From: a phage
Length of the DNA: 64,000 bases
Strand: one strand, 5' to 3'
Sequence record: NC_135729.1
A model generated the notes under the pieces. The model had not been told where the DNA came from, did no database searches, and saw only the letters and a list, made by a program, of their open reading frames with translations. Each line of letters begins with the position of its first letter. Within the stretch, counting starts at the first letter, position 1. Positions 16,989-56,033 of the stretch are shown one piece after another. The position numbers and the translations under genes were made by a program.

Positions 16989-17087
16989 AGGTGCTAGGCG
17001 GTGGAATCGAACCACCTATGTATTCAACGACTACCTCGTCTATTTTCAGGATTAAAAATCCTCGCCCTTGCCAAAGGGCTTACCTAG
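16989..17087 (-). tRNA. aberrant tRNA-like element (about 97 nt; anticodon unresolved)
   Basis: Canonical acceptor stem, D-arm (GCCC/GGGC) and T-arm (GGTGG-TTCGATT-CCACC), but about 30 nt extra between anticodon-like hairpin and T-arm. Confidence 0.35.
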
Positions 17088-17185
17088 CTCAATATGTTGA
17101 CCATGTTGCTAGTCGGCGATGACGACTGTAACATTTGATAATCCGGTTCTGCTTCCGGCTTTCGCTTAATTGCAAGGTCAACAAT

Positions 17186-17276
17186 GTGGCGGAGAGTAAT
17201 GGAATCGAACCATCATCGAGTCATCCTCAACGGGACGGTTTTCAAGACCGCTTGAGCACCATTGCTCCCTACCCTC
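17186..17276 (-). tRNA. tRNA-Ser (anticodon TGA), type II
   Basis: Acceptor GGAGGGT, anticodon loop CTTGAAA, long variable arm, T-loop TTCGATT, encoded CCA. Confidence 0.7.
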
Positions 17277-17392
17277 CTTTATAAATTATACTGATAATGA
17301 CACTGATTTTCGAGCAGTTAGTGACTAGTATAAACGACGATAAATATCAATGCCATTATCTGTATTATTTATGCATCTAAAAAATATAAATT

Positions 17393-32093: not shown

Positions 32094-32921
32094 GGAGGCA
32101 CTTTGAGCAAGAAAGAGTCCAACGACAAATACTACACAAACCCTGAGTATGCAGAATATCTTGTTGGTAAAGTAAAAGATAAGTATGGGAATTGTGCATA
32201 CGTTGAGCCTTCTGCTGGAAGGGGTTCTTTTTCAAAACTATTTTCAGAGATACTGTCGTACGATTTAGTACCAGATCCTGAATTTGAAGGACCAACACCG
32301 TGCATTCAGGCAAACTTCTTGGAGGTGCATCCCAAGGCAGATGTCTTCATAGGTAACCCACCATTTGGCAAGAATTCATCCTTAGCTTGCAAATTCTTTA
32401 ACCATTGTGCATCATTGCTAGAGCTTGGAGGGGCTATAGCCTTCATCTTGCCACGGACATTTGAAAAAATATTTTTTGCAAACAAACTGGACATGTCGAT
32501 GCACCTTGTCTACAGCGAAAGGTGCCCTAAGAATTCGTTTTTACTTAATGGCAAACCTTATGACGTGCCATGTGTTTTCCAAATTTGGGAGAAAAAGGCG
32601 TGCAATAGGGATCCTGTAGAGATTGGAGAGAATAAGTTATTTTCTTTTAGCACACCAGATGACTACGACTTCTGTGTAAGACGTGTTGGGTATAATGCTG
32701 GAAAAGTATTGGGGGATGATGACCCAAAATCTGAAGAATCAACATATTTCATAAAATCTTTAGTTAACGGTGTTGACAGAGTGTTTGCTGAATGCTATTC
32801 TTCTTTTCAAGAAGAAGCAGGTAAGACTGCTGGAATGAAGAGTATAGGTAAGAAAGAACTACAATACATTTTGGAGACCAGGTATGATCAAAAGCATAGA
32901 CTTGACCAAAGAACTTACTGA
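32073..32921 (+). CDS. N6-adenine DNA methyltransferase (gamma class)
   Basis: Motif I VEPSAGRGSF and motif IV GNPPFG; track start lies inside the terminator hairpin, so true start probably TTG near 32103 after GGAGG. Confidence 0.6.
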   Translation: MRLPFPFGGTLSKKESNDKYYTNPEYAEYLVGKVKDKYGNCAYVEPSAGRGSFSKLFSEILSYDLVPDPEFEGPTPCIQANFLEVHPKADVFIGNPPFGKNSSLACKFFNHCASLLELGGAIAFILPRTFEKIFFANKLDMSMHLVYSERCPKNSFLLNGKPYDVPCVFQIWEKKACNRDPVEIGENKLFSFSTPDDYDFCVRRVGYNAGKVLGDDDPKSEESTYFIKSLVNGVDRVFAECYSSFQEEAGKTAGMKSIGKKELQYILETRYDQKHRLDQRTY

Positions 32922-47712: not shown

Positions 47713-47993
47713 AAATGAGTGCTAAGGACAAATTACACCAGCTGGCGCTAAAACGCCCTGTAACGCTCCCTGACGAGCTTAACTCCATTTATGATGCGAT
47801 TGTAGGGGAGATACAAAATAAAGCGTTAGCAGGCTTTCTGGGGTGCGGATTTTCGATAAATCTACCCTCGCATTTCTCAGATTACTTCCCGCACATTGTT
47901 GGAGATTTAAGGGCAGGAGGTCTGCAGGTAGATGTTGTTGGCATCTCCCCAGAGAAAAATAATACGGTTGCCTACTTGACAGTAACCTGGTAG
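47709..47993 (+). CDS. hypothetical protein
   Basis: Start at internal Met MKMSAKDK. Confidence 0.3.
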   Translation: MKMSAKDKLHQLALKRPVTLPDELNSIYDAIVGEIQNKALAGFLGCGFSINLPSHFSDYFPHIVGDLRAGGLQVDVVGISPEKNNTVAYLTVTW

Positions 47994-48029
47994 TTGTGTA
48001 TTGTTGTTTTCAACAAGAGGGGGTCATTT

Positions 48030-48701: not shown

Positions 48702-48935
48702 ATGAAAGTTAAATTTCTTACAGATTTAGGGTACCCTTCCTTGGTTGACTGTGTTGGTAAAATTGTGGAAGCAAAACGGCTATCTGCAAACGAGAATGTT
48801 GTCCTGGTTAAAGGGAAGGATTTACTAGCTGCAGGTGCAGAGTCTGGCAGGATCTCTCCTGATTATATGTATTACCTATCTTTAAGTAATCTGCCAGAGC
48901 GAGGCGGTAAAGGCCTTGAAGTTGTGGAGGAGTGA
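48702..48935 (+). CDS. small acidic protein, paralog family member
   Basis: MKVKFL N-terminus and KGKDLLAAGA motif shared with ORFs at 52261 and 52478. Confidence 0.45.
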   Translation: MKVKFLTDLGYPSLVDCVGKIVEAKRLSANENVVLVKGKDLLAAGAESGRISPDYMYYLSLSNLPERGGKGLEVVEE

Positions 48936-49465
48936 CAGGTATGCTTCTGATTAACTGGGAAGACCTCTATGGGGACAAAGACCCTGTTGCGTTTGTTGAT
49001 CGTAGGTGGAGATACACTGAAGAACAACTGGCGGCAAAAAATTTAACTGCAAAACGCAGAAAGATCATCCAGTGCAAGTACAAATACGCACAGTTTGCTG
49101 CAAAAGTGTCTCCACAAATCGAGAGCTTTGTGCTTAAATTGTATGACGAGTACCTCAAATTCAAATTGGATTTTGTGCAGGTGTACCGTGCACAGGTACG
49201 ACCAGATACCAACATATGTAGATGGAAGGTTGTTTGTGAAGGTAAAGATTTGCCGCTCAGCTTGACAATTGAGTGGCGTTATGGGTATCATGAGTGTGGT
49301 CTGTATGATATTTGGGATGTCATTGTAGATCCTGCTAAGCATCTGAACACAGAGGAGCTGGAATATATCAATAAGGTTATTCTCGATATGTTTTTCAGCT
49401 ACACACATGAAAACTCTGAGAAAGAACGGGATAATTTTCTTGACACCCTCAGCGACCATTTGTAG
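48932..49465 (+). CDS. hypothetical protein
   Basis: 177-aa ORF. Confidence 0.4.
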   Translation: MTGMLLINWEDLYGDKDPVAFVDRRWRYTEEQLAAKNLTAKRRKIIQCKYKYAQFAAKVSPQIESFVLKLYDEYLKFKLDFVQVYRAQVRPDTNICRWKVVCEGKDLPLSLTIEWRYGYHECGLYDIWDVIVDPAKHLNTEELEYINKVILDMFFSYTHENSEKERDNFLDTLSDHL

Positions 49466-49467
49466 TA
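49439..49467 (+). promoter_or_regulatory. sigma70-like promoter
   Basis: TTGACA, 17-nt spacer, TAGTAT. Confidence 0.5.
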
Positions 49468-49495
49468 TACAATTTAACCTACAAAGGGAGGACCA

Positions 49496-49723
49496 ATGAG
49501 TATAAATGTTGTGCTAATAGGTTACCTGGTAATGTCCGTTATAACAGCGGTATTCTTGACAGGTGTATGCATCGTGTCCAGACGAAGGGTGAAGTTTGAT
49601 GATTTTATCACCATCATCACTGCTGCACCTTTTTGGCCTGTTGTTATCTTCATCGTAATAATGTGCCTAGTTGATTACTACAAGAATATCAGGAAGGAGA
49701 GTAGGGATGGAGACCGCACCTAA
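49496..49723 (+). CDS. small two-helix membrane protein (holin-like topology)
   Basis: Two hydrophobic helices and charged C-terminus KNIRKESRDGDRT; 75 aa. Confidence 0.35.
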   Translation: MSINVVLIGYLVMSVITAVFLTGVCIVSRRRVKFDDFITIITAAPFWPVVIFIVIMCLVDYYKNIRKESRDGDRT

Positions 49724-49924
49724 AACTATCTATACTGTTCTTAAAGAGATTGCGTTCTACGCAGATCTTAGCCAGGCACCTTTATGGGAAAAGAGCATGT
49801 ATTTAAAATGGTGCGTTAATTTAGGGAGACCTTCCAGTGTTTCAAGCCATGTTTATTGAGATGCTATCTGGGATATTGTTACTGGTAGCCATCTTAGGTG
49901 GTGCAGTTCTGATGTATAACTATC

Positions 49925-50128
49925 TTGAAAAAGGAGACAGCAATGGTAAAAAATAAATCTTTAGAGCAGGCTGAAAACCTTCTCCACGAGCTGGTAAAGG
50001 AGTGGAAAGTTGAATACTCAGATTTTAATGCACGAGAGGGTGAAGATTATTGGCCTACGGAGCGCTCAGAGGGCGAATGGTATCAAGATTTTATAGAGTG
50101 GTTATATCAGACGTGCGATGAGGGGTGA
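49925..50128 (+). CDS. hypothetical protein
   Basis: 67-aa acidic ORF. Confidence 0.35.
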   Translation: MKKETAMVKNKSLEQAENLLHELVKEWKVEYSDFNAREGEDYWPTERSEGEWYQDFIEWLYQTCDEG

Positions 50129-50595
50129 CGATGTTTGTTAAATATGTAAAAACGTGCCTCAACAGTCTTGGCAGAGAGCATTGGTACACCTTGCTTGAAA
50201 AAGGGGAAATTTTAACAAAATCTGGAAAGATAACTTTGATACCTCTTGATAGTAAAGGTAAAGACCCGTCACGACTTGTTATAGATGATTACGTTACAGG
50301 TGTGACGTTCGAGGTCTCTGTGGATAGGTTAATACGCAGAGCTGGCGGCCCTTATGACCGAAGAGAGTATGTTTTCGATTCCGTTACAGAGATGGGGGAG
50401 CCTCCGTCTTTAATGTTCAGGATGGTAATCAGAGATATGAGGTCATCTATAGATAGGATCGTAAAGGACATTAAGGAACCTTTTAGAGTAAAAGTTAAGA
50501 AGTTTTTCGATTCTAAGATTAACATACTCGCCGTTGCACTAGGTGTAGTTCAACTTCTGTTAATTTTGCACTATTTTGAACTACTATTTAAGTAG
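50125..50595 (+). CDS. hypothetical protein
   Basis: 156-aa ORF. Confidence 0.4.
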   Translation: MTMFVKYVKTCLNSLGREHWYTLLEKGEILTKSGKITLIPLDSKGKDPSRLVIDDYVTGVTFEVSVDRLIRRAGGPYDRREYVFDSVTEMGEPPSLMFRMVIRDMRSSIDRIVKDIKEPFRVKVKKFFDSKINILAVALGVVQLLLILHYFELLFK

Positions 50596-50657
50596 TAGTT
50601 GAGATATGGCACAAAGGATGTGCCATAGTGAAATAAACTAAGAAAGAGGTAGAGAGA

Positions 50658-51005
50658 ATGCCAAAGATTAAAACGTTATTACTGTGGGTAGCTGTTTTAG
50701 CTTTTATAGGGTACTGGACTTGGGAAACTGAATTAAAAGATATCGGATATACCAGTCTTGAGAGCAAGGCGTGCATTGGCATAACCGATGCGTTCAGGCA
50801 AAATGCTATGGATCACGAATGTGTTGATGCAGATATAGATGAGAAACTGTCTAAGGACAAAGATTTTTACCATGGGCATGCTTTACTTGATAGTGGTGAC
50901 ACTGTAGAGTTCTGGTCGTGGTTTCGTGAAGATGGAACAATAAAAACAGCAGTAAAGATCTCTAACAAAGAGTTAATGCTGTTGCAGCAAAAGGAGGCTC
51001 AATGA
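50658..51005 (+). CDS. hypothetical membrane-anchored protein
   Basis: N-terminal hydrophobic helix LLLWVAVLAFIGYW. Confidence 0.4.
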   Translation: MPKIKTLLLWVAVLAFIGYWTWETELKDIGYTSLESKACIGITDAFRQNAMDHECVDADIDEKLSKDKDFYHGHALLDSGDTVEFWSWFREDGTIKTAVKISNKELMLLQQKEAQ

Positions 51006-51289
51006 TCTGGATATCCTATGCTGATGGCACCATGCTGTATACTGCAGGTACCAGATATGAAGTTCAGGAGAACGATAAAAAATTTATCGTAAAAACATTT
51101 GACAAGGACGACAACCTTTTGCTAGAATTGACTTACAAAGTTGGAGAGGTATCCAATATCCAGTTGGATTGTGGTCATAAAGATAATCCACTCAAAAAAC
51201 CTGGAGTAGGTAAGGCTTCAGAAGAACGTCTGTCTCGTATTGCAGAAAGCGTTTCTCCCCAAAAATCTAAGAAGAGGACTAGAAAATGA
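51002..51289 (+). CDS. hypothetical protein
   Basis: 95-aa ORF, coupled. Confidence 0.35.
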   Translation: MIWISYADGTMLYTAGTRYEVQENDKKFIVKTFDKDDNLLLELTYKVGEVSNIQLDCGHKDNPLKKPGVGKASEERLSRIAESVSPQKSKKRTRK

Positions 51290-51480
51290 AAAACTTACGT
51301 TTTAACACTTATTACTACAACACATTGAATGATTTGTATTATATTGTTCGAAGTAAAAGTCCTGAAACAGTCCTATTCTGCCGCGAACCTTTCAAAGGGG
51401 AGGAAGTAGAGTCTGAGATGAATGTTAGCCAGATCACCTCTTTGTTGCTCTCAGGCGCAATGGAAGAAGCAATATTCTAA
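51286..51480 (+). CDS. hypothetical protein
   Basis: 64-aa ORF, coupled. Confidence 0.3.
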   Translation: MKNLRFNTYYYNTLNDLYYIVRSKSPETVLFCREPFKGEEVESEMNVSQITSLLLSGAMEEAIF

Positions 51481-51498
51481 ACCAGGCAGGAGGGTTTT

Positions 51499-51687
51499 AT
51501 GAAGCACTATTGCCTGTCTGGTAGAATGGGTGCAGATTGTGATTGGGTTTTCTTAAAACTTGTCAGCATTCGAGAGTTCATCCCAGAGGAAGAGCAAGAA
51601 AGCGAGCTGATGTCATGGATCAACCATTACGGTAACACTTTTCGGCATGTTAAGGTAGAAGAGTTGCCAAGCGAGGCTGAATTATGA
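51499..51687 (+). CDS. hypothetical protein
   Basis: 62-aa ORF. Confidence 0.3.
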   Translation: MKHYCLSGRMGADCDWVFLKLVSIREFIPEEEQESELMSWINHYGNTFRHVKVEELPSEAEL

Positions 51688-51980
51688 AACTTTTTGAGTG
51701 GTTTAAAAAGTTTAAATATAAAGCTGTAGCCATCGTGCCGTGGTCCATTCAGTGGGTTGATGAAGGTGGTCTACCGATACCTGGTGACAAAGATACTGGG
51801 TACTGGATTATGATGGAGAACGGGTTTGGAAAGCGAAAGTATACGTGCACAAACTCTACTCGATCTGCACTTAATAGAGTGCCTGGTTACAAACTTATGG
51901 TTGTGTGGAAAATGTCAGGCGTGCCTCCAGCCAATGCTCAATTTCTTACTGACAATCCGACCACGGTAGAGGGAGATTGA
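51684..51980 (+). CDS. hypothetical protein
   Basis: 98-aa ORF, coupled. Confidence 0.35.
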   Translation: MKLFEWFKKFKYKAVAIVPWSIQWVDEGGLPIPGDKDTGYWIMMENGFGKRKYTCTNSTRSALNRVPGYKLMVVWKMSGVPPANAQFLTDNPTTVEGD

Positions 51981-52264
51981 TAATGAAAAAGATTAACAGT
52001 AGTGAAGTAGAGTTTAAACTTGTCGGAAAAGGCACTTACTGGGAAGTTCGTCAAAAGGTATATTTGTTCGGTCTTATTCCCTACTGGTCTAAATTCTACT
52101 GGGGAGCTAACGAGTTGGGAAGATACGCCACCAAATCAATGGCACTTATTGGTATAGCAGAGTACATTGCAGCCCGAGACAGGGTTGGAACCACTTATTA
52201 CTACACTGCTGACGATATTCGTAACAGTGTTTACGTCCCACAACCACCTGATGGAGACCGTTGA
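51977..52264 (+). CDS. hypothetical protein
   Basis: 95-aa ORF, coupled. Confidence 0.35.
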   Translation: MIMKKINSSEVEFKLVGKGTYWEVRQKVYLFGLIPYWSKFYWGANELGRYATKSMALIGIAEYIAARDRVGTTYYYTADDIRNSVYVPQPPDGDR

Positions 52265-52488
52265 TGAAAGTTAAAGTTTTAGATTCAAGCTTCTATATTG
52301 GTCAGGAGCCTTTAGTAGGAAAAGTGTTTACTGCTGTCCCTAACGAAGATTACCCTGACCTTTTAAAAATAAAAGGAGCAGATCTTATTGCCGCTGGTGC
52401 ATCTCAGGAATGCTTTGACAGTCAGTGGACCTATAACTTTGCCCTAGGTGAGGATGTAGAGGTAGTGGAGGACGATCATGAAGGTTAA
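52261..52488 (+). CDS. small acidic protein, paralog family member
   Basis: MMKVKVLDSSFYIGQEPLVGKV and KGADLIAAGA; close paralog of next ORF. Confidence 0.45.
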   Translation: MMKVKVLDSSFYIGQEPLVGKVFTAVPNEDYPDLLKIKGADLIAAGASQECFDSQWTYNFALGEDVEVVEDDHEG

Positions 52489-52732
52489 AATTCTTGATTC
52501 TAACGTCTACTTGGGACAATCCTTCCTGAATGGAAAGGTCGTTCCTGCGGTATACTTTGAAGGGTTGCCGTGGGATGATCCTGTGCGGCAACATCACAGT
52601 TATGTAGGCCACAACGTGGTGTTTATCTTGGGATCAGACCTGATCACCGCTGGTGCACCTGAATATTATTTCGGGGAAGAGTCCTACTATGCCTTTGGGG
52701 TAGGGTCAGATGCAGATATTGTAGAGCTGTGA
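52478..52732 (+). CDS. small acidic protein, paralog family member
   Basis: MKVKILDSNVYLGQSFLNGKV and GSDLITAGA; overlaps previous paralog. Confidence 0.45.
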   Translation: MKVKILDSNVYLGQSFLNGKVVPAVYFEGLPWDDPVRQHHSYVGHNVVFILGSDLITAGAPEYYFGEESYYAFGVGSDADIVEL

Positions 52733-52744
52733 TGGGTAACCGTT

Positions 52745-53143
52745 GTGAAAAATAAACTGTTCAAAGTTACAATGAAAATTCGCGGAGCTTGGAGCGTAAA
52801 GCAAGGGCGTATCCCAGAATTTGAGAAAGACTTCTACGTAGTCTCCACCTCGGAGGAGGCTGCATGCTGGCAGGCTGGCTATGCCTATGCAAGAACCTGG
52901 TACGAAGGATACCAGACTGGGGGCTATGACGGAGAAATTGTCAGCAAGGGTGTAGAAGAAATTAATGTGTTGACAAGTGAAAAAGTTTTTGTTATAGTGC
53001 ATCCAGATTCCAGAGTGAAGCATTACTGGAATGCCAGAACAAAAACTTGGACACCGTTTGCAGATTCTGCTACTCCACTTTTAAACCAGAAAGCTCTTGA
53101 CTCTGCCCCAAGTTATGGGGTTGTTGAAGAAAAGCTAAACTGA
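52745..53143 (+). CDS. hypothetical protein, paralog of ORF 54958..55353
   Basis: Shared block VFVIVHPDSRVKHYWNARTKTWTP versus KFVMRHPHSNIAYYWDVLNNEWTP. Confidence 0.45.
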   Translation: MKNKLFKVTMKIRGAWSVKQGRIPEFEKDFYVVSTSEEAACWQAGYAYARTWYEGYQTGGYDGEIVSKGVEEINVLTSEKVFVIVHPDSRVKHYWNARTKTWTPFADSATPLLNQKALDSAPSYGVVEEKLN

Positions 53144-53160
53144 AACAGTGAGGTGTCACC

Positions 53161-53451
53161 ATGATGGATTTAATTCTAAATATTGATAACGCAGGAGAGT
53201 TTAAAGACGATGGTGTAACAAGCATGGACAAACCCTGCTCTGCTAAGGTTGACTCAAAATGGACCTATAAGTTTGATGGAGAGATCTTCGCAAATGATGA
53301 GAAGGTTGTAGATGCTGCAGCCATTTTGAACGCTCTAGGTTACGACCCTGTGAATTCTTTGATCAAGGATCCTGTTGAGTTTGCGGAGTATGTTCGAAAA
53401 ATGGCAGATCTTGCTGTAGATATTTTAAAAACTATCGACAACAAGCTATAA
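53161..53451 (+). CDS. hypothetical protein
   Basis: 96-aa acidic ORF. Confidence 0.35.
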   Translation: MMDLILNIDNAGEFKDDGVTSMDKPCSAKVDSKWTYKFDGEIFANDEKVVDAAAILNALGYDPVNSLIKDPVEFAEYVRKMADLAVDILKTIDNKL

Positions 53452-53456
53452 AACTG

Positions 53457-53485
53457 TTGACACAATGCTTCAGCTATAGTATTAT
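53457..53485 (+). promoter_or_regulatory. sigma70-like promoter upstream of HPF homologue
   Basis: TTGACA, 17-nt spacer, TATTAT; followed by leader hairpin AAGAGAGA...TCTCTCTT. Confidence 0.55.
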
Positions 53486-53537
53486 TGTTTTCAAAGAGAG
53501 ATGGTTGTTACTCTCTCTTCCTTAAAAGGAGCACGTT

Positions 53538-53855
53538 ATGCAAATTGAAATCACTGGCAACGTAGAAATCACTGAAGGTATGGTGTCTTTCATTTCCCAC
53601 AAAATGTCTAAGCTGGAGCGTTTGCACCCATCTGCCAACTATGCACGTGTGAGTGTAAAAGTTGAAAATGATCACCAGGAAGTCATGGCGTTCATTTTTG
53701 ACACTTCCGGAAAAGAAGTTATTGCCAAAGCTAAAGGTAGTGACGCTTACGAGGCAACTGACCGTATGGTAGATGTTGCAGCACGTCAGCTGGCTAAATG
53801 CGGTGGAAAGAAAGGTAAGGGGAAAGGCAAAGTAAAGATTGACTTTGGAGAATGA
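53538..53855 (+). CDS. ribosome hibernation promoting factor homologue (HPF/RaiA/YfiA family)
   Basis: MQIEITGNVEITEG...KLE...VSVKVEN...KAKGSDAYEATDRMVDVAARQL aligns with E. coli HPF as recalled from memory. Confidence 0.7.
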   Translation: MQIEITGNVEITEGMVSFISHKMSKLERLHPSANYARVSVKVENDHQEVMAFIFDTSGKEVIAKAKGSDAYEATDRMVDVAARQLAKCGGKKGKGKGKVKIDFGE

Positions 53856-53864
53856 GGTGCTACA

Positions 53865-53966
53865 ATGGGCGTGATTAAGAAATTAGTCCCAAATGTAGAG
53901 ATTGCATGCTTTGAAATTATGTTTGCAATCGCAGTTGTAGTTAATGTGTTAGGTTACGGCTATTAA
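53865..53966 (+). CDS. small hydrophobic peptide (33 aa, below ORF-track cutoff)
   Basis: GAGGTG SD; MGVIKKLVPNVEIACFEIMFAIAVVVNVLGYGY. Confidence 0.3.
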   Translation: MGVIKKLVPNVEIACFEIMFAIAVVVNVLGYGY

Positions 53967-53992
53967 TATCAAATAATTGAGGAGACCTCTAA

Positions 53993-54262
53993 ATGAAAAT
54001 TAAATTATTCAAAACTGAGCTGGCAGACAAAAACTGTGGACTGGTTGAAGGCATGATCGTTGAAGCACAACCAGTGGACTACATGAAGGTAGTTCGTGAT
54101 GCACTGGGTGAAGGCTTTGATCTGATGGAGCCAGCTCTGCGAGAAGATGTTATCGAGATGGCTAAAAAGCACACACCTGAAGGCTTGGTGGTGTTTGTTG
54201 CACCGGGTAACGGAGAAGAGTTGATTGTAACTCCTGATGTGTATGAGATTGTAGAAGAGTAA
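53993..54262 (+). CDS. small acidic protein
   Basis: 89-aa ORF, MKIKLF N-terminus, acidic IVEE C-terminus. Confidence 0.4.
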   Translation: MKIKLFKTELADKNCGLVEGMIVEAQPVDYMKVVRDALGEGFDLMEPALREDVIEMAKKHTPEGLVVFVAPGNGEELIVTPDVYEIVEE

Positions 54263-54357
54263 TCCTGCTTGGATTAGCATACTTCTCTCAATAAAAAGAA
54301 AAGTTTGTAATTATTTGTGGGAAAGGAATCCCCATCTCTTGCCAGAGGTGATACTAT

Positions 54358-54621
54358 ATGATTGTTTATTTTAAAACTTCAGGTGGATACCCTGATTCTC
54401 AAAGCTTGATCGGAAAAACGTGCACAGCATACTCACCTTTTGATGAGGAGGTAAGCGATATCCTACGAGATATGTATCGGATTGATCCCCAAGAAGCTTT
54501 TGATCAAAACCTTGTATTTGTCAAGGGCTCAGACATGAAGTCTTTGGGAGCATTCCCTGAAGCAGATGATGATGCTGTTTATTCGTTCATGACTCCTTTT
54601 GAAGCTATGGTTGTTGGGTGA
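54358..54621 (+). CDS. small acidic protein
   Basis: 87-aa ORF. Confidence 0.4.
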   Translation: MIVYFKTSGGYPDSQSLIGKTCTAYSPFDEEVSDILRDMYRIDPQEAFDQNLVFVKGSDMKSLGAFPEADDDAVYSFMTPFEAMVVG

Positions 54622-54625
54622 GAAT

Positions 54626-54958
54626 ATGAAAGTACGATTTATTGGTGAAACAATTCCTGTGCATCTCCGGTCGCCTGAAGATTCTGCAGATCTTGCATCT
54701 CAGAAGGCGAGAGGTTATGATAAGAAAGTAATCTCAACCGATGTAGAGCTTGAGGCTACCAGTCTACCTGACCCTGCTGCATTCTTTAATCATTATGGGT
54801 ACTATTTCAGCAATCTGATGAATATAGGGGAGCTTGTGTTTATTAGTGGTGGAGAAATTGTTAGCAAGCTTGGCGGCGATCCGGATGTCTTTCATGAAAC
54901 CTGTCCTTTTGCATTTGTGGTTGGTTCAGATGTGGAAGTTATTGAGGAGGTGCGGTAA
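54626..54958 (+). CDS. small acidic protein, probable paralog family member
   Basis: Start at Met MKVRFIGET; C-terminal VVGSDVEVIEE resembles family C-termini. Confidence 0.4.
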   Translation: MKVRFIGETIPVHLRSPEDSADLASQKARGYDKKVISTDVELEATSLPDPAAFFNHYGYYFSNLMNIGELVFISGGEIVSKLGGDPDVFHETCPFAFVVGSDVEVIEEVR

Positions 54959-55353
54959 TGGTAAGCCTATACCGTGTTGAGTATAGCTCAGATACTGTGT
55001 ACAACGTAAGAAGTAAAGATCGCAGCGACAGAGTGCAAGAAATGTATGTTCTTGCCGACAGTCCGTTATCTGCAGCGTTCAAGGCAGGGGCTCTTGCATC
55101 TCGTTGGAAATTTGAAGGCGGATCTTTCTATGAAGAAACCCTTGAAGATTCTGTTGTTATTTCTTCTGTAGAGGTTTCAGATGACTACGAAGGGAAAAAG
55201 TTCGTAATGCGGCACCCACACAGCAACATTGCGTACTACTGGGATGTTCTGAACAACGAGTGGACCCCAGATCTTCAGAAGGCTACTGTGCTAACACCGT
55301 TTTTGGCAGATAAGTTCCCACCAGAAGGTAATTTATCCGCATTGTTTCAGTGA
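54958..55353 (+). CDS. hypothetical protein, paralog of ORF 52745..53143
   Basis: Shared HP(D/H)S..YW...WTP block. Confidence 0.45.
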   Translation: MVSLYRVEYSSDTVYNVRSKDRSDRVQEMYVLADSPLSAAFKAGALASRWKFEGGSFYEETLEDSVVISSVEVSDDYEGKKFVMRHPHSNIAYYWDVLNNEWTPDLQKATVLTPFLADKFPPEGNLSALFQ

Positions 55354-55433
55354 TTTTCTTGCACACAGGTATTGACAACGCCAACCCTGTGTGCAATAAT
55401 ACACCCATCTTAACAAAACAGGAGATTTTAATA

Positions 55434-55682
55434 ATGAAAATTAAACTTAAGAATATTGATGAGGCCGCTTTAGAAGGTATCGATTTCGATTTCCCATTTA
55501 AAAACGGGGATATCATTGAAGCACAAATTCCTACCCGAGAAATGGTAAATAGTTTTGCAGAAGATGGTGCGGCAACAATGATTATGCTAATTATGGACGG
55601 CACTCTCTTCATTGGGGAAGAGGACGATCCAATCATGATTCCTGGTCATTTTTATGAATTAGTTGACGAAGAGGTGCTGTAA
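55434..55682 (+). CDS. small acidic protein
   Basis: Start at Met MKIKLKNID with AGGAGA SD. Confidence 0.4.
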   Translation: MKIKLKNIDEAALEGIDFDFPFKNGDIIEAQIPTREMVNSFAEDGAATMIMLIMDGTLFIGEEDDPIMIPGHFYELVDEEVL

Positions 55683-56033
55683 ATGAAAGTAGAAATTACC
55701 GGTTTTGATGTGAATGTGGTTCCGGAAGATATTTTAGCTAAACTTCCGGAAGGTTTTGGTAACGGCGTTGTGGTGGATGCTGTTCCTCCTACCAAAGACA
55801 TTCTGCTGCAGTATGGTGTAGCAGAGGAAGATGTCGATAAAGTTCTTACAATGATGGCAATCGATCGTGTTGTCGTTGTTAAGGGTCTCGATAATTTTGA
55901 GAGTGATCCCCTGATTATTCGTGGAGATGACTACAAAATCATCGATAATGAAGGCCAAGAGTTCTATGAACCTTGTGCAGAAGATATTCTTAACTTATTA
56001 CTGGAAGCAGGCACCGAAGAGGAGGACGAATAA
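55683..56033 (+). CDS. small acidic protein
   Basis: 116-aa ORF, start abuts previous stop. Confidence 0.4.
   Translation: MKVEITGFDVNVVPEDILAKLPEGFGNGVVVDAVPPTKDILLQYGVAEEDVDKVLTMMAIDRVVVVKGLDNFESDPLIIRGDDYKIIDNEGQEFYEPCAEDILNLLLEAGTEEEDE

Follow-up and report, generated by a model that had tools for sequence, protein, structure and literature searches.

An HPF-family gene of rV5-like coliphages: family membership, predicted ribosome contacts and a re-reading of published ribosome data

Whether dormant bacteria retain a usable translation apparatus depends on ribosome hibernation, and dormancy of the host is a major obstacle to phage replication and to phage therapy. For the question of how phages cope with hibernating ribosomes, a virulent coliphage family that has retained an HPF-family gene under strong purifying selection offers a natural probe. 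One such gene lies in the stretch of DNA analyzed here (64,000 nucleotides, sequence record NC_135729.1; "the window" below), which belongs to an rV5-like myovirus of Escherichia coli, genus Vequintavirus. The remaining interest of the locus is whether its product, which we call phage HPF, binds ribosomes, and whether its effect is to promote, to mimic or to counteract hibernation; a negative result published in 2019 could not have answered the question of ribosome binding. We find that both the sequence, with significant matches, and the predicted fold fully support the assignment of the protein to the S30AE/HPF-RaiA family. The gene is laid out as follows.

53538-53855, plus strand: open reading frame (ORF) of phage HPF, 105 amino acids (aa), with an ATG start at 53538 and a TGA stop (ORF list and sequence)
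53538-53804, plus strand: HPF-family part of the ORF, ahead of the tail (PF02482, TIGR00741, identity to HPF, AlphaFold2 model)
53805-53855, plus strand: Lys/Gly-rich C-terminal tail, residues 90-105 (GKKGKGKGKVKIDFGE), and the TGA stop

The gene is almost certainly the Vequintavirus orthologue of rV5 gp139, and its product an rV5-type HPF-family protein. The rV5 protein (gp139 or ORF144; ABI79209, YP_002003641), the "HPF" of Mizuno et al. 2019, is likewise 105 aa long, is 99% identical and differs at one residue (T56 in the window, N56 in rV5), and its neighbours, its promoter P144 and its tail are the same as in the window. Phages EduardKellenberger and Gotham encode an identical protein (100%), and over the 2.5 kb surrounding the gene the window shares 97.6% identity with phages ECML-10, JLBYU08 and JES2013 and 96.6% with rV5. 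Neither the gene nor its promoter is new, both having been annotated with the rV5 genome, and a publication of 2019 reports the gene together with a first test of ribosome binding. The rV5 reference record (DQ832317/NC_011041) describes ORF144 as similar to Klebsiella sigma-54 modulation protein and places a "Sigma70-type promoter P144" at the homologous position (NC_011041), Mizuno et al. 2019 (PMC6375957) listed the proteins of rV5, FV3, JES-2013, FFH2 and typing-phage-14 as phage HPFs, and Mathieu et al. 2020 (PMC6969025) found hpf in five further rV5-like phages, "as already described." Existing phage records name the protein "sigma 54 modulation factor," "RaiA," "hpf" or "ribosome hibernation factor." Later studies of phage HPFs or Vequintavirus early genes, whether functional, structural or transcriptomic, were sought in the literature, and nothing came up beyond the experiments of Mizuno et al. 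2019 and the gene listing of Mathieu et al. 2020. What the present analysis adds is an examination of the contact residues and the tail, together with a re-reading of the 2019 supplementary data.

The initial annotation of the window, made from the letters alone, had proposed a phage homologue of HPF/RaiA that aligns along its length with E. coli HPF. The homology is borne out by S30AE family matches and by the predicted fold, and every sequence element described there was found in its place. In the S30AE profile search that had been suggested as a check, the protein passes the gathering cut-off of Pfam PF02482 (Ribosomal_S30AE) with 48.2 bits against 23.7 (expectation value E = 1.9e-12), the match spanning residues 3-88 and profile positions 1-83 of 88, and it also exceeds the cut-off of NCBIfam TIGR00741 (HPF/YfiA family) with 46.7 bits against 40.9. 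A phmmer search of the PDB returned E. coli HPF chains at E about 1e-11 (7e-12) over residues 1-89. Compared with E. coli HPF as a single pair (BLASTP E = 2e-17), the phage protein is 42% identical over 88 residues, and to YfiA/RaiA it is 24% identical. The alignment with E. coli HPF therefore holds for residues 1-88 and not for the full length, the tail being without an HPF counterpart. By these sequence comparisons phage HPF is HPF-type rather than RaiA-type, and the RefSeq product name "RaiA" is unsupported at the subfamily level.

The fold was assessed with an AlphaFold2 model, a predicted rather than a solved structure, built from a 19-sequence alignment. Its mean predicted local distance difference test (pLDDT) score is 81.5, with block means of 86-93 over residues 1-80 and 78 for residues 81-90, and its elements (E2-7, H13-29, E33-43, E46-55, E60-67 and H70-92; E, strand; H, helix) form a β-α-β-β-β-α fold. 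The best match in a Foldseek search of the PDB is 6h4n_x, E. coli HPF in the 100S ribosome (template modeling scores of 0.82/0.90, root mean square deviation of 1.1 Å), and the top 37 PDB matches are all HPF, RaiA or pY chains, ahead of the first unrelated one. The short HPF of E. coli (YhbH; PDB 2RQL, 6H4N and 6Y69) shares the fold and is the best structural match, the phage protein being one residue shorter in the β1-α1 loop. E. coli RaiA (YfiA or protein Y; PDB 1N3G and 4V8I) has the same fold as well, and phage HPF presumably shares its ribosomal site.

What might such a protein do in an infected cell? The best overall explanation, which we hold to be about as probable as its negation, is that phage HPF is an early-expressed, salt-labile occupant of the host HPF/RaiA site. 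We hypothesize that an ancestor of these phages captured a short-HPF-type gene from a gammaproteobacterial host long ago and then kept it. Host RNA polymerase would transcribe the gene early from P144, as the first in a run of small early genes, with the leader hairpin serving as a 5' stem-loop that guards the mRNA end. The protein would then enter the head-body pocket of vacant host 30S or 70S ribosomes, where it would overlap the places taken by mRNA and by the A- and P-site tRNAs, in the same way as host HPF and RaiA and by means of K22, K25, R28, E60, D75, R83, K87 and K91, and its binding would be salt-labile, as with E. coli HPF. The disordered Lys/Gly tail would probably add non-specific rRNA affinity and run towards uS7, the mRNA exit and the RMF region. 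Bound in this way, phage HPF would hold ribosomes as idle, intact 70S monomers, and it would compete with host RaiA and possibly with RMF-dependent 100S formation. For the central step, salt-labile binding of vacant host ribosomes at the HPF/RaiA pocket, we put the chances at roughly even. That the basic tail brings about a RaiA-like action (70S monomers and competition with RaiA and RMF) instead of promoting dimers is a tentative suggestion only, and rather doubtful.

Evidence on the pocket comes from the residues that touch the ribosome. We mapped the contact list of a cryo-electron microscopy preprint (10.1101/2025.10.07.680626) onto our own alignment, using E. coli numbering. The preprint places the short-HPF contacts K26, Q29 and Y30 near m3U1498 and A790, describes T53, H/V62 and E51 as a platform on m2G966, has H/R55 and E60 touching the uS9 C-terminus, also lists D75, and traces a basic track along helix α2 composed of K80, R83 (on m4C1402), K87, K89 and K91. 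About two thirds of the contact positions tested (K23/K26, E51/T53/V-or-H62, D75 and the α2 track) are kept. The phage protein retains K23, K26, E60, D69, Y71, D75, D79, R83, Q84, K87 and K91, its K22 and K25 being the equivalents of K23 and K26, and it carries conservative changes at Q29 (to R) and H62 (to I; V in Pseudomonas aeruginosa).

Several observations weigh against an occupant of the HPF/RaiA site, and we take them together here. Six positions are replaced in the phage protein: position 51 is M, T53 is F, H55 is F, Y30 is L, K80 is V and K89 is G. Two of the replaced positions belong to the reported m2G966 platform, and position 51 is acidic in 15 of 18 cellular homologues (E in most, Asp in E. 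coli). A divergent phage lineage, described below, has the losses at 51, 53, 80 and 89 in common with the window (S, R, T and S, respectively). Two cellular homologues likewise have V at position 80, and no single replacement is disqualifying; as a set, the replacements suggest that the hold on the m2G966 platform and on helix α2 is altered or weaker. The equivalog cut-offs of NCBIfam are not reached, neither for HPF (NF007780, 55 against 125 bits) nor for RaiA (NF007654, 18.7 against 158 bits): HPF is the nearest subfamily, yet the phage protein should not be called an HPF equivalog. The lineage is isolated, in that an exhaustive HMMER scan of 1.84 billion representative proteins gave one close relative (P0004, 65% identity), the 25 other matches, apart from P0006, having 26-44% identity at E of at least 4e-7. 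The only published binding experiment found no ribosome binding by phage HPF, and a search of the literature for a Vequintavirus transcriptome found none, the early timing being inferred. The tail, for its part, is shortened in Murica, whose protein has 99 aa, and a frameshift alters it in APECc02 (101 aa); the indels, real or sequencing errors, fall in a G/A-rich low-complexity run and leave the core intact. The next predicted promoter also has its -35 box, TTGACT, within the last HPF codons (I-D-F), and the conservation of the last residues (IDFGE) may reflect this DNA constraint rather than a protein one.

Much of this would also suit a repurposed fold, in which the phage kept the HPF architecture for another RNA or protein target and uses the Lys/Gly tail as a general nucleic-acid clamp. 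The replacements at E51, T53, H55, Y30, K80 and K89, the scores far under both equivalog cut-offs, the isolated lineage and the failure to detect phage HPF on ribosomes or to see an effect on 100S particles (PMC6375957) are all in keeping with it, as is the assignment of the protein to a PHROG of its own, phrog_12469, apart from the general phage S30AE family phrog_8990. Both phage lineages nevertheless keep the strongest signatures of the family (K22, K25, D69, Y71, D75, D79, R83 and K87; Q84 is found in the window lineage, the divergent one having H instead), the model fits onto ribosome-bound HPF with a deviation of 1.1 Å, and the change at K80 is also seen in some cellular homologues. The neighbouring genes point to no alternative partner, none of them having a Pfam match, and the negative experiment does not discriminate, host HPF being equally absent from the same preparations. 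On balance we think it improbable that the fold has been turned to another target.

The experiment itself bears directly on whether phage HPF occupies the HPF/RaiA site. Mizuno et al. 2019 (PMC6375957) used pBAD24 and arabinose to produce the rV5 protein in E. coli NM522, grew the cells to an optical density at 600 nm (OD600) of about 1, pelleted ribosomes through a 500 mM NH4Cl/1.1 M sucrose cushion and analyzed the 70S and 100S fractions by mass spectrometry. Phage HPF was present in the crude extract and not on the salt-washed 70S or 100S ribosomes, and the level of 100S particles was unchanged by its expression; the phage protein thus differs from E. coli HPF in that no 100S stimulation is reported for it. 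The authors suggested that salt stripping or growth phase might be responsible. Under the terms of refutation given in the initial annotation (no significant S30AE match and no ribosome binding), this absence would count as half a point against the reading. Their Supplementary Data 2-5 hold two points beyond the main-text discussion, namely, the loss of host HPF and RMF and a difference in RaiA. In the crude extract of these cells both host HPF (score 210) and host RMF (score 217) were seen, and neither occurs in any of the three ribosome protein lists. Because host HPF and RMF were also lost from the salt-washed ribosomes, the negative result for phage HPF carries little weight, and since host HPF was likewise seen only in the crude extract, the absence of the phage protein matches the behaviour of the authentic factor. 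In not being retained on salt-washed ribosomes phage HPF resembles host HPF, whereas RaiA survives the 500 mM NH4Cl wash. The entries for host RaiA in the supplement of PMC6375957, with those for two ribosomal proteins, are these.

Ribosomes of bS21-expressing cells: RaiA score 22.6, 1 spectrum
Ribosomes of bL12-expressing cells: RaiA score 137, 6 spectra (S17, 139; S14, 129)
Ribosomes of phage-HPF-expressing cells: RaiA absent from the 71-protein list (S17, 110; S14, 101)
Crude extract of phage-HPF-expressing cells: RaiA score 188

The loss of RaiA is what competition for a common site by a salt-labile binder would give, and we take it as a hint and not as evidence, the comparison being one of a single unreplicated shotgun mass spectrometry sample with no listed empty-vector control. 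Because RaiA is missing only from the ribosomes of cells expressing phage HPF, the same hint raises the thought of an anti-hibernation factor, a fast-on, fast-off occupant of the pocket whose tail blocks the RMF site, so that RaiA is evicted and 100S formation prevented. We consider such a role unlikely on present data; if true, slow-growing or starved E. coli in the gut would be left with intact ribosomes that the phage could quickly put back to use for its own translation. A tblastn search of the window with an RMF query sequence found no RMF-like product (best E = 2.6).

The same experiment also bears on a role in host shut-off, in which an early protein would block initiation on host ribosomes and so silence host translation; the initial annotation had put forward such silencing, or else a protection of ribosomes. 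The gene does have an early-type sigma-70 promoter, but the binding site of the family cannot tell host from phage mRNA, and phage translation would be stopped too. Moreover, arabinose-driven expression left the ribosome profiles unchanged and the cultures reached an OD600 of about 1 (PMC6375957), and Pfam searches of the neighbours reveal no evident partner that could confer selectivity. We therefore regard host shut-off as a poor candidate, with little probability of being correct.

If phage HPF does occupy the HPF/RaiA site, its tail is the part most unlike that of the host factors. The Lys/Gly-rich end reported in the initial annotation is indeed present (GGKKGKGKGKVKIDFGE, residues 89-105). 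It is predicted to be disordered (pLDDT < 50 at residues 91-103 of the AlphaFold2 model) and has a net charge of +4, and the isoelectric point of the whole protein is 8.7, compared with 6.5 for E. coli HPF. The phage protein ends at residue 105, HPF at 95 and RaiA at 113; the phage tail extends some 10 residues past the end of HPF and comes close in length to the ordered portion of the RaiA tail. RaiA differs in that its tail ends acidic, with a net charge of -3. The extension of RaiA beyond the length of HPF is reported to progress towards the RMF site (preprint 10.1101/2025.10.07.680626), and by analogy the phage tail may behave similarly and head for the same site. In relative L004 the K/G pattern is kept through five synonymous changes, one replacement and the loss of one codon, and the tail of the divergent lineage differs in sequence and is still basic (KYSKSKGIDKRTAKWDY).

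How widely and how faithfully the gene is kept was examined next to its possible origin. The protein occurs at an identity of at least 95% in 118 phage records, and a collection of 50,697 phage records contains 129 that are HPF positive, about 118 of them in the rV5 group; outside this group such homologues are rare. The close relative found in the HMMER scan, P0004, is syntenic with HPF and belongs to an rV5-related clade assembled from metagenomes and E. coli samples. Within the genus, the ratio of nonsynonymous to synonymous differences per site (pN/pS) is about 0.04 (0.019/0.442 against L004 and 0.010/0.281 against L003). Comparison with the divergent lineage shows saturation at synonymous sites (pS of 0.82; pN of 0.22), and the protein of that lineage still scores 50.6 bits on PF02482. 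On these figures the gene is under strong purifying selection. They bear on the reading that phage HPF is a passenger, taken from a host, now decaying or neutral, and without any part in infection. The lack of a phenotype in the published assays (PMC6375957) and the truncated and frameshifted tails in two deposited genomes could be taken that way, but the core has a pN/pS of about 0.04, the gene persists in the 118 records and, past synonymous saturation, in a sister lineage that passes PF02482, the promoter is conserved, and the frameshifts are confined to the low-complexity run and spare the core. The selection data largely refute the passenger reading, and we give it very little credence indeed.

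Mizuno et al. 2019 (PMC6375957) suggested that the gene was captured recently from the host. A recent capture is not supported here: identity to E. coli HPF is only 42%, the 1.84 billion representatives include no closer cellular relative, and the selection data likewise argue against it. Other phage S30AE genes are likewise known from large virulent phages, such as those of Cronobacter phage GAP32 (AFC21633) and Xanthomonas jumbo phage XaC1, and from phrog_8990. The GAP32 and XaC1 proteins do not match the rV5-type protein at E <= 1e-5 and are independent acquisitions, the XaC1 protein matching E. coli HPF at 34% and the GAP32 protein having been placed with Firmicutes sequences by Mizuno et al. 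2019 (PMC6375957).

The divergent clade consists of contigs of about 125-137 kb (L005-L008: Logan ERR6997038_58, ERR4623478_391 and SRR25571739_58736, and ENA ERZ16268152 scaffold_272) and has no close cultured representative among the 50,697 records, in which the best coverage is 19% at 81-88% identity. A further match from the HMMER scan, P0006, is a protein of 1,160 aa that matches phage HPF in nine separate stretches (E = 1.3e-8) and looks like a tandem multi-repeat of S30AE-like segments, which would be an unusual architecture for the family.

We also note several labelling problems among the records. Several public records give the HPF gene the label "ATP-dependent protease La Type I," the label "sigma 54 modulation factor" sits on the downstream 89-aa gene in APECc02 and additionally in nom, and 18 records titled "Campylobacter phage" are rV5-like coliphage genomes; the records concerned are OR062528, MT884008, MT884010 and MT884009, KR698074 and MN850646, and the MG0656xx series. 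Minus-strand ORFs overlapping the HPF gene at 53508-53675 and 53522-53638 were considered and set aside, being unannotated in the related phage records examined; the plus-strand gene accounts for the conservation.

How the gene is expressed depends on the following elements around it.

53457-53485, plus strand: sigma-70-type promoter, equivalent to rV5 P144 (-35 box TTGACA at 53457-53462, 17-nt spacer, -10 box TATTAT at 53480-53485)
53494-53519, plus strand: leader hairpin with arms AAGAGAGA (53494-53501) and TCTCTCTT (53512-53519), a perfect stem of 8 bp with a 10-nt loop
53526-53531, plus strand: Shine-Dalgarno sequence AAGGAG, 6 nt 5' of the ATG, read from the sequence
53839-53866, plus strand: second predicted promoter, TTGACT-16-TACAAT (-35 box at 53839-53844, -10 box at 53861-53866), a 10/12 match in the scan with an extended -10 TG
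53865-53966, plus strand: ORF for a hydrophobic protein of 33 aa, the orthologue of rV5 gp140 (ORF list; annotated in rV5, slur16, FV3, nom and Murica)

In E. coli, hpf is transcribed from the rpoN operon, whereas the phage gene has its own sigma-70 promoter. This promoter, TTGACA-17-TATTAT, had been recognized in the initial annotation and corresponds to P144 of rV5; it matches 11 of 12 consensus positions in the scan, its activity being predicted from the sequence, and it is annotated in Gotham as well. The -35 box and promoter are kept in every relative examined, including the lineage whose HPF is 64% identical. Promoter-like sites as a class are not enriched (9 in 4 kb, compared with 7.8 ± 2.5 in shuffles), and the whole 64-kb window has about 30 TTGACx-N16-18-TAnnnT sites. 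The notion that the gene has a promoter of its own thus stands as far as a conserved sigma-70-type site is concerned, but such a site is ordinary in a promoter-rich early region. The scan also found no terminator after the HPF gene, and because none follows, HPF is the first gene of a unit and not a solo gene.

The 33-aa ORF immediately downstream is probably co-transcribed with HPF from P144. It has no Pfam match and is not called in the divergent lineage. The second promoter, also annotated in Gotham by PhagePromoter, has a -10 box that overlaps the ATG of this ORF (53865), so the ORF must be translated from the HPF transcript, with a Shine-Dalgarno sequence GAGGT at 53855-53859; if real, the second promoter would serve the next gene at 53993.

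The leader had been described as structured. The 8-bp hairpin is present, at about +9 to +34 of the predicted transcript, and occurs modestly beyond chance: a perfect stem of at least 8 bp is found in 1.4% of genomic 52-nt windows and in 0.44% of leader shuffles, and the folding energy of the 40-nt leader is at the 4th percentile of the window. The longer interval 53486-53560 (75 nt, comprising the leader and the initial 23 nt of coding sequence) is no more stably folded than its shuffles (z = -0.92), and in the minimum-free-energy fold the Shine-Dalgarno sequence lies within a weak 4-bp mini-hairpin, UCCU/AGGA. Pairing in the stem amounts to 91% over nine sequences from the genus, seven of them distinct, and the loop varies in sequence and in length (7-10 nt); rV5 has the stem variant AAGAGGG/CCCTCTT with a 7-nt loop, compared with AAGAGAGA/TCTCTCTT and 10 nt in the window. 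One pair changes between A-U (the window and L003), G-C (rV5, nom, APECc02, L004 and FV3) and A.C (Murica and slur16), or G-C four times, A-U twice and the A.C intermediate once over the seven distinct sequences. Support from covariation is weak, resting on a single compensatory event whose score is reached by 70 of 500 shuffles, and in the divergent lineage L005-L008 the hairpin is missing, with the promoter kept and the leader short.

We consider the hairpin real and modestly beyond chance but not striking, and we do not claim the structure as proven: the structured leader amounts to one short stem with a single compensatory pair, absent from the sister lineage and belonging to no Rfam family. 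Most simply, it would be a genus-level 5' stem-loop that stabilizes the mRNA end, neither a riboswitch-like regulator nor essential. Three other possibilities were set aside. For a known RNA family in the leader, such as a raiA-associated motif, Rfam searches of 53300-54000 gave no match beyond two at chance level (E > 1). A terminator of the upstream gene would have a T-run, which is lacking here, and none is called at this place. Hairpins are also not general to the early promoters of the phage, which would have made the one at HPF unremarkable: the folding of 17 promoter leaders is no better than that of the genomic background (Mann-Whitney p = 0.84), with just two strong folders among them, the HPF leader included.

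The initial transcribed sequence right after the -10 box is near-identical at several strong promoters, TGTTTTCAA at 47976 and 53457 and TCTTTTCAAG at 32773. The promoter stretches with this common start sequence are 47976-48015, 53457-53494 and 32773-32812, and their likeness suggests either a conserved start-site context or recently duplicated promoter cassettes.

The HPF gene lies in an array of paralogous small early genes, 48702-56033, without Pfam matches. Within it, 52264-52488 resembles 52478-52732 (40% identity, E = 2e-14) and, more weakly, 48702-48935 and 54626-54958; 52772-53143 resembles 54958-55353 (31%, E = 1e-7); and 55434-55682 resembles 55683-56033 (27%, E = 4e-5). Many of the small early proteins of the array start with MK(V/I)K and have acidic C-terminal residues. 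Elsewhere in the window, the seven genes of a tRNA cluster include one of 99 nt that ARAGORN reports as "tRNA-???", its anticodon having four bases (atcc); the stretches noted in this cluster are 16990-17088 and 17187-17277, both on the minus strand. Five of the seven cluster genes reach the Rfam tRNA gathering score, the "tRNA-???" and a tRNA-Ser falling below it, and the odd tRNA is possibly intron-containing, degenerate or frameshift-suppressor-like.

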